Below are positions 11,967 through 25,705 of a stretch of DNA of 58,325 nt, piece after piece. Source of the DNA: Vicinamibacteria bacterium (GTDB lineage: Bacteria; Acidobacteriota; Vicinamibacteria; Vicinamibacterales; UBA8438); the NCBI GenBank assembly GCA_963577695.1, contig CAUZAY010000001.1, positions 1 through 58,325 on the forward strand, written 5' to 3'. Both the position numbers and the translations under genes were made by a program. The notes below the pieces were generated by a model. It saw only the letters and a list, made by a program, of their open reading frames with translations, was not told the origin of the DNA and searched no databases. Numbering within the stretch: the first letter of the stretch is position 1; each line of letters begins with the position of its first letter.

Positions 11967-11989
11967 CTAGCAGCCCGTGGGAGAAGTCC
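11967..11989 (+). repeat. Third copy of the CTAGCAGCCC(R)TGG..AAGTC motif
   Basis: CTAGCAGCCCGTGGGAGAAGTCC resembles both arms of the 16982..17147 inverted repeat (CTAGCAGCCCATGGTGAAAGTC / CTAGCAGCCCGTGGTGAAAGTC). Similarity continues into ..C-CTGCA. It lies 35 nt upstream of the exonuclease ATG. GTCTAGCAGCC also occurs (reverse complement) at 6552..6562. Confidence 0.45.
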
Positions 11990-12023: not shown

Positions 12024-12861
12024 ATGAATGTCGAACTGTTCGCGCAACAACTGGCCGCCCACCTTCGGCTGACCCGCCCGCTCGTATGCGTCGATCTTGA
12101 GGCCACGGGCGTCTGGCCCGGGCAAGACCGGATCGTGCAGATTGCGACCGCGACTATCTTCCCGGACGGCCGCGTGTCGACCTGGTCATCGCTGGTGAAT
12201 CCCGAGCAGGCGATACCAGCCGCGGCCCAGACGATCCACGGCATCAGCGACACGATGGCGGCGTCTTCGCCGACGTTCGCGCAGTTGGCTCCGGAGATCG
12301 CGACACTCCTCGCCGAGCGCGACCTGACGGGCTACAACGTCGAACGGTACGACCGCCGACTGTTGGCCGCCGAATTTCGACGGGTGGGACACGAGGATCC
12401 GATGGCCGATGCCCGGGTCATCGACGCCTACACCATCTTCGCGCGCCAGGAGCCTCGCAGTCTCGACGCGGCGTTACGTTTCTACGGGGTCGAGACGGGA
12501 GAGGCCGCACGACGCCAGAAGCGATGTCGAGGCCACCGTCGGCGTCCTGGCCGCGCAACTCCACACGTATCGCAACCTGCCGAAGACGGTCGACGCGCTA
12601 CACGCCTGGCTCTACCCGAGCGACCCGAACCGCATCGATGCCGACGGGAAGCTCGTGTGGCGTGACGGCGTCGCGACCGTCGCGTTCGGAGCCCAGGCCG
12701 GAACCGCTCTCACGGAACTGGCGGACAACGACCGCAGCTTTCTCGAGTGGGTGCTGCGCAAGGACTTCTCGCCCGAGGTCAAGGCGATCATCGAGGCGGC
12801 CCTGGAGGGACGATTCCCCGTCCGTCCGCCGGCAGAGTCGGGTTCGACTGCGGGTGGGTGA
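12024..12861 (+). pseudogene. DEDD (DnaQ-like) 3'-5' exonuclease with DUF3820-like C-terminal domain, interrupted by a 1-nt frameshift
   Basis: Exo I VCVDLEATG and Exo II GYNVERYDRRLL lie in ORF 12024..12665. Exo III HDARSDVEAT and the C-terminal domain (FLEWVLRKDFSPEVK) lie in ORF 12409..12861. The frames join as ..FYGVETGE-A-HDARSD.. if one nt is removed within 12504..12507 (GCCG). Confidence 0.7.
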
Positions 12862-16542: not shown

Positions 16543-16941
16543 TCAGTGTGCCCACGGATCGTAGTCTCCGAAGCTCCAGAGATACCCCTCGAGATCCTTG
16601 CAGGTGTAACCGCGGCCGCCGTAGTCCTGGTCCTGGATGTCCAGCACCATCTCGGCCCCGGCCGCCTTGGCACTCGCATAGTGGGCGTCGGCGTCTTCTA
16701 CGACCACGTAGGCGCTCTGCGTGTTGGTGCCGGCCTCAGCCGGGGTGGAAACGAGGTCGTCGTAGCCGCCGCCGTGCGTGGACGCGCTTCCGAGCATGAT
16801 CATGCCGTGGCCGAAGACCAGCTGAGCGTGCGCGATGGTTTCACCCTCACCCGGCACGACGAGCTGCTTCTCGAAACCGAACGCGCGGCACAGCCACTCG
16901 ATCGCTTTCGGCGCATCCTTGTAGCGAAAACTGGGAATCAC
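16543..16941 (-). CDS. VOC (glyoxalase/bleomycin-resistance fold) family protein
   Basis: IPSFRYKDAPKAIEWLCRAFGFE...AHAQLVFGHGMIMLGS...YGGRGYTCKDLEGYLWSFGDYDPW. GTG start at 16941 without its own SD. See the upstream mini-ORF. Confidence 0.8.
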   Translation of the reverse strand: MIPSFRYKDAPKAIEWLCRAFGFEKQLVVPGEGETIAHAQLVFGHGMIMLGSASTHGGGYDDLVSTPAEAGTNTQSAYVVVEDADAHYASAKAAGAEMVLDIQDQDYGGRGYTCKDLEGYLWSFGDYDPWAH

Positions 16942-16981: not shown

Positions 16982-17147
16982 CTAGCAGCCCATGGTGAAA
17001 GTCCCGCTGCATTCGACGGACGCTGAATCCCGTCGATCTGCGTTGTTCATCGGTCGCATACTGCCGGTATTCTCCCTCTTCTCGCCTTGTTCGACGGGCC
17101 CAGCGCCCGTCTCGGTGCGACGCGCGACTTTCACCACGGGCTGCTAG
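16982..17147 (-). repeat. 166-nt long-stem inverted-repeat element directly abutting the VOC-gene SD (candidate structured leader RNA or MITE-like insert)
   Basis: The arms are 16982..17003 (CTAGCAGCCCATGGTGAAAGTC) and 17126..17147 (GACTTTCACCACGGGCTGCTAG), 22 nt with one difference. That difference is a G-U wobble only in the minus-strand transcript. The interior has nested helices (TCGACGG/CCGTCGA, GTCGCA/TGCGAC, GACGGGC/GCCCGTC). Confidence 0.5.
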
Positions 17148-17320
17148 TGTCCCGCGCGGACCATCGGGTACGGCCGAGCCCGGTCAACGGTATTGGACCG
17201 CCCGACTCAATGCAATGCGTGGTTGCACCACGGGCCGCACGCCCGAGTCGCTCACATTCGGACCAATCCGTCGTCTCCCCTCCCGGGCCGGGGTAAAATC
17301 CCGCACCTGACTCGTGGGTC

Positions 17321-17488
17321 AATTAGGACCCTGGTCGAAATAAAGTTGCCATCTTTGGCGCCGCGGCGCCTGGCCGGCCAGGCGCGAGGAGCGCGCATAC
17401 CGGGAGTATGTAAGCGACGAGCAACGCCGACGGGCGGGATGCCCCGGCGGCCAAAATGGTAACTTTATTTCGATCAGGGTCCTTAGTT
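17321..17488 (+). repeat. 168-nt element with ~40-nt AT-rich inverted-repeat arms, 38 nt upstream of the zf-PARP gene (candidate leader hairpin or MITE)
   Basis: Left arm AATTAGGACCCTGGTCGAAATAAAGTTGCCATCTTTGGCGCC; reverse complement of the right arm AACTAAGGACCCTGATCGAAATAAAGTTACCATTTTGGCCGCC. Both substitutions are G-U compatible in the plus-strand RNA. The centre holds a perfect 20-nt palindrome GCGCCTGGCCGGCCAGGCGC. The arms are strikingly AT-rich for this genome. Confidence 0.5.
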
Positions 17489-17525
17489 CCCACATCCAGA
17501 ATCGCGTCCAACGGAAGGAACAACC

Positions 17526-18140
17526 ATGGCGGAAGAAGACGCCCCGGCAGCCACGCCGGAACCGGAGCTCGCGCCGTACCTGCTCGAATCCGCTCGTTCG
17601 AGCCGTTCGAAGTGCCGTACCTGCAGACGAAAGATCGAAAAGGACACGCTACGGCTCGGGATTCTCCTCGAAGGCCCATTTGGCACGGGCTACCTGTGGC
17701 ATCACCTCACCTGCGCCGCGCGGCGTCGACTCGAGGACGTCGAAGCCGCGTACGAGCAACAGGCGTTCGCCGATGGACTGCAGGTGCCCCCATTGGCCGA
17801 ACTCCAGGCGCTCAAGGAGAAGGCGGAGCAAGCACGGGCGGAGCGTAAGGAGCTGCCATACGTGGAACGCGCCCCGAGCGGGCGCTCGAAATGCAAGAAC
17901 TGCGGCAAGGCCATCGACCAGGACGCGCTGCGCGTGGTGCTGGCGCGGGAGGTCTCCTTCGGCAACCAGGTCCGAGCGACCCCCATCAACGTCCACCCCG
18001 AATGTGTCCACGCGGAACTCGAATCGGAGGACTGCATGACCGAGGTCGACGGGTTCGAGGCCCAGCTGCGCCAGAACAGCACGCTCGAATCGTCGGTCGT
18101 TGATGAAGCGGTGGCGGCCATTGGCGTGCTCGAAGGCTAG
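17526..18140 (+). CDS. Tandem PARP-type zinc-finger (zf-PARP) protein
   Basis: There are two CxxC...HxxC units with PARP/Lig3 finger flanks. The first is ESARSSRSKCRTCRRKIEKDTLRLGILLEGPFGTGYLWHHLTC. The second is ERAPSGRSKCKNCGKAIDQDALRVVLAREVSF...INVHPEC followed by VDGFEAQL. 204 aa with no catalytic domain. GGAAGGAA SD. Confidence 0.8.
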   Translation: MAEEDAPAATPEPELAPYLLESARSSRSKCRTCRRKIEKDTLRLGILLEGPFGTGYLWHHLTCAARRRLEDVEAAYEQQAFADGLQVPPLAELQALKEKAEQARAERKELPYVERAPSGRSKCKNCGKAIDQDALRVVLAREVSFGNQVRATPINVHPECVHAELESEDCMTEVDGFEAQLRQNSTLESSVVDEAVAAIGVLEG

Positions 18141-21100
18141 TGTCCTGTGGACCGCGCTTCTGGTCTTGGCCGCGGCCTCGGCCGCGGCCCAAGCGCCTGA
18201 CGAGGACTGGCGTGTCTTCGACACCGAGCATTTTCGAATCACGTATCCGCTGCGGCTGCGCGGTCTGGCCGTGCGCGTGGCCGACCGAGCCGAAACGGGC
18301 CCGCACGGGCCTCCAGGCGCAGTTCGACGAGCCGCCAGCGGCCGCCATCGACATCGTGGTCACAGACCACACCGACGCGAGTAACGGATTCGCGACCGTC
18401 GCCCCCTGGAATCGCATCACGATCTTCGCGCCGCCTCCCATCGAGGGGTTCGAGCTAGCGTACTTCGACGACTGGCTCGAGCTCGTCGTCACCCACGAAC
18501 TGGCCCACATCTTTCACCTGGACCGACGGGGACAGCTAGGTGCACTGGCCAAGGCCGCGTTCGGGCGGGCGCCGGTGCGCTGGCCGATCTTTCCGAATAG
18601 CGCGTTGCCCCGGTGGGCGGTGGAAGGCCTCGCCACCTACTTCGAGTCGTCGCTCACCGAGGCGGGACGGGTCCAAGGCACGTTTCACGAGATGGCCCTC
18701 CGCACGGCGGTCCTGGAAGGCGCCTTCGAGACGTTGCCGCAGGTGTCTGGCGAGACCCAGGTCTGGCCAGCGGGGAACCGACCCTATATCTATGGCTCGC
18801 TGTTCTTCGATCATTTGACCCGAGAGTATGGCCGGGAAAGGATGGCCGACTTCGCCCGCGCGGTCGATGGACAAGTCGTGCCGTTCCGCATGAACGCCGC
18901 AGCCCGGCACTCGTTCGGCGTCAGCTTCACCGACGCGTTCGCCCAGTGGGCCGGCACGCTCGACACCCGATACGCCGGTTTGGCGGCTGAGTTGGAGCGA
19001 CATGCGCCACTGACCCGAGGCGAGCCGATTGCTGGGGACGGGCGCTGGGCGCTGTACCCCACACTGGCCCCTGACGGCGCCACCCTGGCGTTCGCTCGCT
19101 CCGACGGGTCGTCCGACGCCCAGATTCATCTAACCAGCGCCACCGGCACCGCCCCCCGCACGTTGACCCGGACCAACGGCCTCACCCAGTTGGATTGGTC
19201 CCCGGACGGCCGGGTCGTGTTCTCGCAGATCGAGTTCATCGACCCCTATCGGAGCTACAAGGACCTCTACATCGCGAACCCGGCGAACGGCCGCATCCGC
19301 AGGGTCACCCGCGGGGCGCGGCTCGATTTTCCGTCGGTCTCCCCGGATGGCGGACGAGCCCTGGCAGTGCAACAGGGCGAGGGTCGTACCTGGATCGTGG
19401 TAGTGGACCTGACGACCGGCGCGGTCTCGCCGCTGGTAGAACCGGCCGACGACGTGCACTGGGCCTACCCGGCCTGGTCGCCCGACGGCCGATGGATCGC
19501 GGCATCACGTTGGGAGCCCGGCGCCTTCTACGACCTGCTGGTCCTGGACGCGACCGGTCGAACAGTGGACCGGGTGACCAGGGACCGGGCCATCGACCTG
19601 GCGCCCACCTGGACCCCAGACTCGCACCGCGTCCTGTGGGCCTCGGACCGAACCGGTATCCCGAATCTCTTCGCGGCGGACATCGGAGACGATGGCCGGG
19701 CGGGCGCGATCCGCCAGGTCACCAACCTGCGCACGGGCGGGTCGTACCCGGACGTGGACCTGACCGCCACGTGGATCTACTTCAGCGCCTATCACGCGGA
19801 CGGTTGGCGTGTGGAACGTATTCCCTACGACCCTACGACGTGGGTCAGCCCGGCTCCCACCAACAATCGATTCACGGCTGGCGGTGGAACCACCTTCGAA
19901 CCCGATTCGCCTCGCGCTGGCGTCAGCGTTGAGGGCGAGGAACGTCCGCACCGACCGTTCCCATCACTGTTCCCTCGGTTCTGGACTCCCATCTTCGCGG
20001 GCGGCGAAACGCGCCGCGGCACGCGGGTGCTGGGCCCGCGCGTGGGGATCTCGACCTGGGCGATCGACACCGTCCAGCGCCATGCGGCCGAGGCCGCGCT
20101 CAGTTACGAACCCCAGGGCGATCGGTTCAGCGGTGGCCTCAGGTATTCGTTCGCGGGCCTGGGCACGCCGATTCTCGGCTTCTCGGTGGCGCAACGCCAC
20201 ACATCAGCGGGGTTCGCGGCCGAGGACCCCTCGACAGACGGCGTACCACCGGGACGGCGGGACCTTTTCCTGGTGACACGGGAGCAAGAACTCCGAACCG
20301 ACCTCACCATGATTCGACGGCGGGTTCGCAGTATCGCCACTCTCTCGGTGGGTGCGTCCTATGTCTGGGAGCGTCAGCAACTGCTGAATGACAGCCTGGC
20401 CACGGAGCGCGTCTTTTCGCCAAGACGACCCACCAGCGGCCTACCCCAGCTCGATGCGACGGCGAGCTACGTCAACACGCGTCTGCACGCGTTCTCGATC
20501 AGCCCGGAGGACGGCATCCGTGGATTCGTCAGGACCAGACGGCGATGGGACCCCGCCGTGCCGGCCTCGCTCGCGGGAACACCAGGCGCGGACGCCTCCT
20601 GGACCGACCTTTCCGGCGACATCCGGCTGTACAAGTCGGTCGGGTTGCCCGGGTTCGCGAACCACGTGCTGGCGTTCCGCGCCAGCGGTGGACGGGCATC
20701 GGGAAGCGGCGCCGACGCGTTCTTCTACAGTGTCGGGGGAACGACGGGACAGGCAGAGGCGATCACCGGGTTGACGCTGCTCAGTGCGTCCGCCCGCCCG
20801 TTCCCCATCCGCGGCTACCCGTTCGGCATTCGCTCCGGGTCCAGAGCCTGGTCGGCATCGGTCGAGTATCGGATGCCGCTCGCGCGCGTGAACCGGGGAC
20901 TGGGGGGCGTCCCGCTGTACCTCGACTGGATCAGTGGCAGCGTGTTCGTCGATGCCGGCAACGCCTGGGGCCCGCGCGTGCCGCTGACCGGATTCGACAA
21001 CCCGCGCGACAGCCCCCTGGCCTCGGTCGGTGGAGAACTGCTGATGAACGGGGTGCCCCTGTGGACGGCGCTCACGGTCCTGCGGACCGGCATTGCGGTC

Positions 21101-21157
21101 CCGCTACGGGACGAGGGCGGGCCAACGGCGTATGTGCGGCTGGGGTTGCCCTTTTGA
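18103..21157 (+). pseudogene. Secreted HExxH peptidase / TolB-like (PD40) beta-propeller / Omp85-like beta-barrel fusion protein, interrupted by a 1-nt frameshift near the 5' end
   Basis: The signal peptide plus WRVFDTEHFRITYP..VRVADRAE are in the frame of ORF 18100..18384. The rest is in ORF 18140..21157: VVTHELAHIFH, repeated SPDG../TPDS.. PD40 units, and a C-terminal ..VEYRMPL...LYLDWISGSVFVDAGNAW. Deleting one A of AAA 18293..18295 joins them as ..ADRAE-RARTGLQAQF.. Confidence 0.75.
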
Positions 21158-24874: not shown

Positions 24875-25705
24875 CTACTCGGGGGACGGAGTCTCAACGC
24901 GTGTGGCCAACTGATACACCCCGCGCGCCGGTGTGGTCGCGTAGCCGTCGGCTACCAGCGCCCGATTGCCGAGACCGGCCTCGGGGCGGGACAGCCCGGT
25001 CACGCGAGCCAGTTCGCCGGGAATCGTCAGCCCGGCTCCCGTCAGAAAGCATCGGGCGATTTCCCGGACCGCGTTGTCGCGGCGCACTCGCCGGGTGAGC
25101 GGTGTCGGAAACCGTCCGATGCCCAGCGTCCAGATGTAGGTAAACCTCGGTTGGTAGACGACCTCGCTGGGGACGACGAGCATCACCGCCTGGAGCTCAT
25201 CCAAGGCTCGTGTAAACGTCCGTCGATCGGTCACCCCCGATTCGGCCCGCAGATCCGCCGTGGCGAGCTCCCACTCCTGACGCAAGACGCGCAGGACCCG
25301 ACGGGCGTCCTGGCTCAAGTGCCGCGTCTCGTCGGACTTTCGGATACCCCACACCGCATGAAAGTAGGGGATCATGCGCGGCGCGAGGAACATCGCTTTG
25401 CCGCGCGACAGCTTGGCGTAATACGTCTTGCCGCGCCGCACGAGCTGGTCCTTCAACTGCCAGGTGAGCGACGCCTCCGGGTCTTTCTGGACGTTGCGCG
25501 GCATCACGGCGTCGCGGCGTCCACATACCGCGACATAGAGCGATGGACCCGGACGGCGTGCGTCAGTGAGGCAAGCGGCGAACCCGTTGCGCTCGACGAA
25601 CCGCTCCGCGTCGAGGGGGGTCTCGACCTGGAGGCTCCCTTCCCGCTGCCAGCGTTCGTCGCGGTAATCTTCGATGTCCGGTGGGATGTGCGGGCGAGGT
25701 CTCAT
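24875..25705 (-). CDS. Hypothetical protein (possible winged-helix region)
   Basis: 276-aa ORF with natural composition (K/Y/F/E-containing), whereas the antisense track ORF 24740..25840 is Arg/Pro/Gly-rich. No family assigned with confidence. Confidence 0.55.

Follow-up and report, generated by a model that had tools for sequence, protein, structure and literature searches.

The window analysed here is a stretch of 58,325 nucleotides (nt) from a marine Vicinamibacteria bacterium of the phylum Acidobacteriota (contig CAUZAY010000001.1 of GenBank assembly GCA_963577695.1, positions 1 to 58,325), and this report concerns a gene within it that encodes a protein of 204 amino acids (aa) with two PARP-type zinc fingers (zf-PARP). 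Fingers of this type are the textbook DNA strand-break sensors of eukaryotes. The gene is preceded by a Shine-Dalgarno sequence and stands divergent from a VOC/glyoxalase-fold gene; a DEDD exonuclease gene lies farther upstream, and two elements resembling miniature inverted-repeat transposable elements (MITE-like elements) occupy the upstream region (Table 1). The open reading frame (ORF), the divergent VOC gene and an exonuclease gene about 5 kb away had been reported in a preliminary description made from the sequence, and all three were recovered.

The same description had read the product as a stand-alone tandem zf-PARP protein without a catalytic domain, and the profile searches bore this out. 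The protein matched PF00645 (zf-PARP) over two stretches (E = 1.6e-22; score 80.5 bits, curated cut-off 39.3 bits), a match that had been chosen beforehand as the test of the proposal. No other Pfam family scored above its own cut-off in the scan of the 204-aa protein, and a search of NCBIfam with it gave no match. Scored separately in the genome search, the fingers reached 48.8 bits (finger 1) and 34.8 bits (finger 2), the latter below the cut-off. This gene was the only zf-PARP copy in the assembly (4.39 Mb, 460 contigs, 86% complete), and proteins of this kind are already annotated by Pfam in public data.

The sequence strings quoted in the preliminary description (SSRSKC/SGRSKC, WHHLTC, VHPEC and VDGFE) were all found. 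The ligand spacing is C30-x2-C33-x26-H60-x2-C63 in finger 1 and C123-x2-C126-x30-H157-x2-C160 in finger 2; the CxxC-28/30-HxxC pattern first given needs correction, the 28/30 spacing being that of human PARP1 and not of the window protein. A 16-residue, acidic and proline-rich N-terminus precedes finger 1, and the linker between the fingers is very short. Both fingers retain the helical extension past the zinc site ("GLQVPPLAELQALKEKAE" in finger 1, "VDGFEAQLRQNS...VDEAVAAIG" in finger 2). The whole protein therefore consists of two complete zf-PARP domains, standing alone without an enzyme domain.

Table 1. Features of the zf-PARP locus and its surroundings, in window coordinates
Feature	Position	Strand	Remarks
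zf-PARP gene	17526..18140	+	intact 615-nt ORF, 204 aa; stop codon TAG at 18138-18140
Shine-Dalgarno sequence GGAAGGA	17513..17519	+	6 nt upstream of ATG; conserved at related loci L003, L004 and L047
Finger 1	17574..17849	+	approximately aa 17-108; ligands C30, C33, H60, C63
Finger 1 ligand codons	17613-17615, 17622-17624, 17703-17705, 17712-17714	+	C30, C33, H60, C63
Finger 2	17850..18137	+	approximately aa 109-204; ligands C123, C126, H157, C160
Finger 2 ligand codons	17892-17894, 17901-17903, 17994-17996, 18003-18005	+	C123, C126, H157, C160
Cys170 codon	18033-18035	+	lone Cys in EDC.TE
Candidate -10 box TAAAAT	17294..17299	+	inside GGGTAAAATCCCGCA
166-nt MITE-like element	16982..17147		26-nt terminal inverted repeats bearing CTAGCAGCCCNTGG
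168-nt MITE-like palindromic element	17321..17488		43-nt inverted arms
Solo terminal repeat	11967-11980		third copy of CTAGCAGCCCNTGG, ahead of the exonuclease gene
VOC/glyoxalase-fold gene	16543..16941	-	divergent; PF00903, E = 7.4e-12; no functional link
RNase_T/DEDD exonuclease gene	12024-12665	+	4.9 kb upstream of the zf-PARP gene
Downstream gene	18100-21157		secreted PD40/Tricorn-like/Omp85-like protein, approximately 1000 aa
AlkZ-related gene	24875-25705	-	PF24741, E = 2.6e-25; 7 kb downstream

Conservation, predicted fold and proposed function

Among 5.8 billion proteins searched, 464 homologues were recovered. Those listed were all approximately 200 aa long and carried PF00645 only; their source names, where present, were mostly "hypothetical protein". 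Retention of the zinc ligands in orthologues, on which the preliminary description depended, was complete: all eight were invariant among 60 relatives (60-87% identity). Also invariant in this set were R24, S25, R27, R43, W58, R120, R136 and F145, whereas K39 was nearly invariant and position 52 was either F or Y.

The DNA interface of the second finger (F2) of PARP1 has been defined by nuclear magnetic resonance (NMR) and mutagenesis (Eustermann et al., PMC3094755) and comprises K119, S120, R122 and K134 in loop L1, R138 and W157 in the sheet, and L151 and I154 in loop L2. When the window protein was aligned with PARP1 F1 and F2 using HMMER, we observed that K119, S120, R122, K134, R138, L151 and W157 correspond to R24, S25, R27, K39, R43, F52 and W58 in finger 1. 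The contact set of finger 1 is thus complete, with all residues invariant or nearly so among the relatives except F52. In finger 2, the equivalents in the same order are P117, S118, R120, Q132, R136, F145 (at the hairpin tip) and N155, so that the set is kept in part: S118, R120, R136 and F145 are retained, the basic residue is lost at P117, the Trp is lost at N155, and Q132 replaces a residue that is Lys in most relatives. These losses agree with the sub-threshold score of finger 2 and point to finger 1 as probably the main DNA binder, with finger 2 in an auxiliary role. Between the finger 2 helices, Cys170 is nearly invariant. This residue is specific to the subfamily of the window protein (subfamily A) and absent from the related subfamily B (both defined below), and no partner for zinc binding or for a disulfide is evident for it.

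An AlphaFold2 model built on the alignment of the 60 relatives had a mean predicted local distance difference test score (pLDDT) of 90.9 and a predicted template modelling score (pTM) of 0.69. Each finger was modelled as a three-stranded sheet followed by helices, with predicted strands at residues 18-22, 42-50 and 53-60 (finger 1) and 112-115, 135-145 and 148-156 (finger 2). The predicted model has the zf-PARP fold as described by Eustermann et al. (PMC3094755), namely a three-stranded antiparallel sheet in which a long hairpin bears the first pair of ligands, followed by helices that bear the second. At E < 0.01, Foldseek matches in the PDB were exclusively PARP1 Zn1/Zn2 and the ligase III finger, led by PARP1 on nicked DNA (9mi8) and followed by the NMR structure of F1F2 with DNA (2n8a). 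The best solved relatives in a PDB sequence search were again PARP1 F1F2 (2n8a, E = 4.9e-13) and the ligase III finger.

Compared with human PARP1 F1/F2 (Zn1/Zn2; 2n8a, 4av1, 3od8, 3odc and 9mi8), the window protein belongs to the same Pfam family and has the same predicted fold and zinc site. The tandem fingers are collinear over approximately 170 residues, the arginines that grip the backbone are conserved, as is the hydrophobic tip of the hairpin, and finger 2 has the x30 spacing of PARP1 F2. Unlike PARP1, the window protein has no Zn3, BRCT, WGR or catalytic domain; its finger 1 spacing (x26), the missing Trp of finger 2 and the very short linker also differ. The N-terminal finger of DNA ligase III alpha (1uw0), a nick sensor, shares family and fold, but it is a single finger on a ligase, and the genome that carries the window yielded no ATP-dependent ligase. 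The plant-type ZDP-like proteins (P0160 and P0239) join several zf-PARP fingers, as a damage-targeting module, to a PNK3P 3′-phosphatase, that is, to an end-processing enzyme, whereas the window protein has no enzyme domain. By description only, a parallel in make-up is Hpz1 of Schizosaccharomyces pombe, a small PARP-type zinc-finger protein without PARP activity whose loss causes sensitivity to UV and hydroxyurea (PMC3435320). Hpz1 shows that genome maintenance can involve a zf-PARP protein without catalytic activity, but it is a eukaryotic nuclear protein that is under cell-cycle control and has links to Rad3/ATR (PMC3435320).

Domain homology and the strict conservation of the contact surface, together with the tie of subfamily B to Ku and LigD at the level of the family, suggest that the window protein is a non-catalytic, zinc-dependent binder of DNA nicks, gaps or ends, a reading to which we give a probability of roughly 0.5. 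Under this proposal, a small cytoplasmic zinc protein would recognise DNA discontinuities as PARP1 F1F2 and the ligase III finger do. Each finger would hold one zinc ion through its C-x2-C...H-x2-C ligands, arginines of loop L1 and strand beta-2 would grip the phosphate backbone, and a hydrophobic side chain, F52 in finger 1 and F145 in finger 2, would stack from the tip of the beta-2/beta-3 hairpin against the terminal base pair that is exposed. Finger 1, with its full contact set, would do most of the binding, and finger 2, minus the Trp and one basic residue, would assist across the break. With neither a catalytic nor an obvious partner domain, the protein would have to exert a physical effect: it might cap or protect the break, bend the DNA or flag the site for other factors. 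Neither Ku/LigD nor a PARP enzyme would take part in this lineage. A conserved bacterial protein made of two fingers only would represent a minimal, enzyme-free form of the break sensor and might serve as a model for break recognition without allosteric output.

Several observations weigh against the break-binding proposal. Finger 2 lacks the Trp that is important for binding by PARP1 F2. Ku was present in 4 of the 11 subfamily A genomes considered, a proportion indistinguishable from the background, and the loci compared showed no conserved repair neighbour for this subfamily. Matches to GTTC-N7-GTTC, which we take to be the acidobacterial LexA motif, were as frequent as expected (50 vs 49) and none fell in the promoter region of the gene; SOS control was rejected on this ground. 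No experimental paper on any bacterial zf-PARP member was found in the literature searched. Finally, hairpins, cruciforms and RNA are also ligands of PARP-type fingers, and the word "break" may describe the target too narrowly.

This last point leads to the alternative that fared best, in which the protein binds structures other than breaks (hairpins, cruciforms or structured RNA) and serves as a nucleoid-associated or regulatory factor instead of in repair. The known binding of PARP1 fingers to non-B DNA and RNA, the divergence of finger 2 from the break-binding consensus, and the lack of a repair-gene context or Ku link in subfamily A all suit it. We consider it unlikely though far from negligible, since finger 1 retains all residues that contact the nick in PARP1 and the sister subfamily has a link to end-joining genes.

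A second alternative is that the PARP-type fold has been reused as a protein-protein adaptor or as a zinc module for a ligand other than nucleic acid. The two-finger module occurs alone (approximately 175-210 aa, in most cases with the first finger at the very N-terminus) and also fused to HEAT-like, DKNYY, 5-FTHF cyclo-ligase and large unknown domains, as well as to regions that, by eye, we take to be LRR/TIGR02996-like. Such fusions would suit a recruitment module, as would the lack of a catalytic output and of a conserved neighbour. The basic and aromatic DNA-contact surface is, however, strictly conserved, and every characterised member of the fold binds DNA, which makes an adaptor role quite improbable.

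Subfamilies, partner genes and distribution

Of the 401 Acidobacteriota genomes sampled, 29 had PF00645, which, within the family of the window's own genome, was confined to its genus. When this sample was searched with the window protein, the carriers separated into two subfamilies. Subfamily A, to which the window protein belongs, comprised proteins 50-95% identical to it in five genomes (G351, G331, G054, G020 and G204). Subfamily B comprised proteins 31-41% identical to it in 22 genomes from 17 genera and 11 families. Members of both are stand-alone, collinear two-finger proteins of approximately 175-200 aa. They differ in spacing (x28/x27 in subfamily B, x26/x30 in the window protein), and the window's subfamily, unlike subfamily B, has an acidic N-terminal extension and the conserved Cys170, lies on a separate long branch and is indifferent to Ku.

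The two subfamilies differed sharply in their association with Ku. All 22 carriers of subfamily B were Ku-positive, against a background of 154 of 401 genomes in the same sample (hypergeometric test, P = 3e-10 by genome and P = 8e-8 by genus, both overstated because related genomes are not independent). In five genomes the subfamily B gene lay 4-10 kb from Ku, and a full LigD stood beside Ku in both annotated subfamily B loci. The gene order was Ku, LigD, DUF72, zf-PARP (174 aa) in one (L070; G284:C22) and Ku, LigD, a 1424-aa RNaseH-like/SF1 helicase protein, zf-PARP in the other (L071; G340:C41). The 1424-aa protein, encoded directly before zf-PARP, carries RNase_H_2, AAA_11 and AAA_12 domains, and the cluster could be a larger end-processing gene cluster.

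Ku was not found in four of the five subfamily A carriers of the sample; the remaining carrier (G331), which was Ku-positive, also has a subfamily B copy. Three of five further subfamily A genomes, reached through their loci, had Ku, and the other two (G401 and G402) did not. In the assembly that carries the window, neither Ku nor an ATP-dependent ligase was found. The PARP catalytic domain PF00644 was likewise without a match there, a weak negative since control genomes were equally silent. A PARP, Ku or LigD partner acting in trans was therefore rejected, none having been found in the genome. Of the WGR and catalytic domains that mark PARP1-type break-activated ADP-ribosyl transferases, neither was matched in the protein, and the catalytic domain had no match in the 86%-complete genome. 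The window protein shows neither the Ku co-occurrence nor the Ku-LigD proximity of subfamily B. The tie to Ku/LigD thus holds for subfamily B and not for the window's subfamily, and the split yields two testable hypotheses, one of a subfamily B strictly accompanied by Ku and one of a Ku-independent window subfamily.

Given the proximity to Ku and LigD confirmed for subfamily B and an assembly just 86% complete, the window protein might still be an end-joining accessory of the same kind whose Ku/LigD partners were missed. We regard this as very unlikely, because the absence recurs in other genomes: there was no Ku in the same-genus genome G351 (96% complete), in G020, G054 and G204 (94-99% complete, with subfamily A only), or in G401 and G402. 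In addition, a long, fully supported branch divides subfamily A from subfamily B in the tree rooted with the latter.

The preliminary description had called zf-PARP modules uncommon in bacteria. This is roughly correct, 29 of 401 genomes of the phylum carrying one. The wider bacterial family is sizeable: 556 clusters at 50% identity matched the window protein in a library of 1.84 billion proteins, and most of the best cluster matches were bacterial-looking proteins of approximately 175-210 aa. Taking one representative genome per species, the window's type was found in metagenome-assembled genomes (MAGs) of Acidobacteriota (Vicinamibacterales and "Marinacidobacterales"), Planctomycetota, Gemmatimonadota and Myxococcota.

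Within the subfamily A tree, Acidobacteriota fell into two well-supported clades. The clade of the window protein (support 99/99) includes two Planctomycetota sequences, one of which (L007) lies in typical planctomycete synteny, and the other Planctomycetota formed a basal comb. The starred branches of this tree force at least three label changes per phylum, and these changes, together with the patchy presence of the gene, suggest transfer between phyla. From the tree, the window's subfamily has probably been transferred horizontally between phyla, with mis-binned MAG contigs as a possible alternative, and the gene is probably an accessory one passed between marine bacterial phyla.

Patchy distribution and the mixing of phyla in the tree would also be expected of a phage- or plasmid-derived protein that caps ends or counteracts nucleases, and transposases flank the gene in one relative. 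Nevertheless, no relative was found among 72,556 plasmids, 50,697 phages and the IMG/VR viral contigs, and the PADLOC defence collection gave no match, so that a phage, plasmid or defence origin was rejected and appears highly improbable.

In a tree of single fingers, based on 96 columns and few eukaryotic sequences and weakly supported, bacterial second fingers formed one group (Shimodaira-Hasegawa-like approximate likelihood ratio test, 88). The eukaryotic fingers sampled (F1 and F2 of a PARP1 orthologue, ZDP-like and multi-finger proteins) formed another (93), nested among bacterial first fingers. This topology hints that the bacterial tandem is probably not orthologous, finger for finger, to PARP1 F1F2, and that proteins of the window type may not be a recent capture of a eukaryotic PARP1 fragment. 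The family bears on the origin of the eukaryotic finger module. In the most far-reaching reading, an old prokaryotic family of stand-alone break sensors would be ancestral to the fingers of eukaryotic PARP1, ligase III and ZDP and would have split into an end-joining partner that always accompanies Ku and a horizontally mobile, Ku-independent branch, that of the window, which serves a pathway of break or structure sensing so far undescribed in bacteria; we consider this speculative and rather unlikely.

Two sets of large, bacterial-looking proteins with an N-terminal two-finger module and of unconfirmed origin were also observed. Four are 918-996 aa long (P0176, P0190, P0212 and P0244), and five of 533-568 aa have an LRR/TIGR02996-like C-terminal region (P0170, P0178, P0186, P0187 and P0213). 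In both sets, the fingers are followed by 350-800 residues without a Pfam match.

Upstream elements and neighbouring genes

The motif CTAGCAGCCC.TGG, which had been noticed near the exonuclease and VOC genes and taken as a hint of a shared damage response, is real but does not mark a regulon. The window holds three copies of CTAGCAGCCCNTGG (at 11967, at 16982 and at 17134 on the minus strand) against 0.02 expected. Two of the three are the arms of one inverted repeat, the 166-nt element, and a box of a damage regulon was ruled out because the motif is the terminal inverted repeat of this dispersed element. The third copy is a solo terminal repeat. The termini of the 166-nt element read CTAGCAGCCCATGGTGAAAGTCCCGC..., and at least 58 matches were present in the genome (40 of 120 candidates scored), many of them 85-99% identical. 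At this locus the element sits at a CTAG beside the ribosome-binding site of the VOC gene; it is absent from L047 and L003, where the empty site is a single CTAG.

The upstream 168-nt palindrome of the preliminary description was likewise confirmed as a structure, but it is a dispersed repeat and not specific to the gene. It consists of AT-rich 43-nt arms around a GC-rich core, matches the genome at least 45 times (of 163 candidates, 40 were scored) and is inserted at T(T/C)AG. It is present in L047, and L003 has the empty site. A role as a gene-specific regulatory element or binding target was rejected on these two grounds. No Rfam family matched either element. Both elements are dispersed and are missing at the same site in strains whose zf-PARP protein is 98-100% identical (the 166-nt element is missing from L047, whose protein is 100% identical, and both are missing from L003, at 98% identity). 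This identifies the 166-nt and 168-nt elements as mobile, MITE-like insertions; they are neither regulon boxes nor operators nor binding targets. A specific link of the protein to these elements, by hairpin binding or regulation, or through a damage regulon shared with the VOC and exonuclease genes, is effectively refuted: despite the position of the elements directly upstream and the recurrence of the motif ahead of the exonuclease gene, both are dispersed with dozens of genome matches, both are missing at the locus in those near-identical strains, and relatives in other phyla lack them.

The scan for consensus promoters upstream of the gene gave no full sigma-70 match. The sequence GGGTAAAATCCCGCA, which contains the candidate -10 box, is conserved in L004 (protein 89% identical) although the surrounding DNA diverges; L003 has GGGTAACATCCCGCA at this site, that is, TAACAT for TAAAAT. 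The 168-nt element lies between the candidate promoter and the ribosome-binding site, and thus probably within the 5′ untranslated region, to which it would add a large hairpin in the window's strain.

Nor did the neighbouring genes bear out a DNA-damage context. ThuA-like, unknown and cupin genes lie between the exonuclease gene and the VOC/zf-PARP locus, and none of the VOC, exonuclease and AlkZ-related neighbours is kept with the zf-PARP gene beyond the closest relatives. The search for conserved neighbours in the window's subfamily turned up unrelated genes only (PurF-like, histidine kinase, FG-GAP, NHL, MacB-like and unknowns), and conserved neighbours were rejected. With the motif identified as a mobile-element end, the neighbours not conserved, and no Ku, ATP-dependent ligase or PARP domain found, the hint of such a context did not hold. 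The local context of this gene carries no functional information, and its regulon-like motifs are the ends of transposable elements. The AlkZ-related gene, a possible relative of DNA glycosylases, adjoins a PadR pseudogene and is retained in the closest strains only.

A deoxyhypusine-synthase-like (DS) gene lies directly upstream of zf-PARP in several Planctomycetota (L007, L030, L032, L033, L034 and L052), and in L052 (6697-8642) it ends 4 nt inside the zf-PARP start, in an ATGA overlap. NadA, a GT2 glycosyltransferase and XseA recur near these DS/zf-PARP loci. A linkage of DS and zf-PARP was rejected: DS is common in Acidobacteriota (318 of 401 genomes, 79%) without an association there, lies on another contig in the window's genome, and is absent from the subfamily A carriers G020 and G054. 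We judged the arrangement in Planctomycetota to be lineage-specific synteny. An apparent DS-finger fusion (P0117) comes from a contig of 3.4x coverage and looks like a frameshift artefact, and the long open frames upstream of the gene in L009, L010 and L043 contained no extra domain.

Downstream of the zf-PARP gene, the DNA of L003 is entirely different from that of the window. In L047, the start of the downstream gene overlaps the 3′ end of zf-PARP by 38 nt. The window copy of this gene is frameshifted by an extra A at 18293-18295 (GAAACGG, against GAACGG in L047); the extra base is either a true mutation or an error of the assembly.

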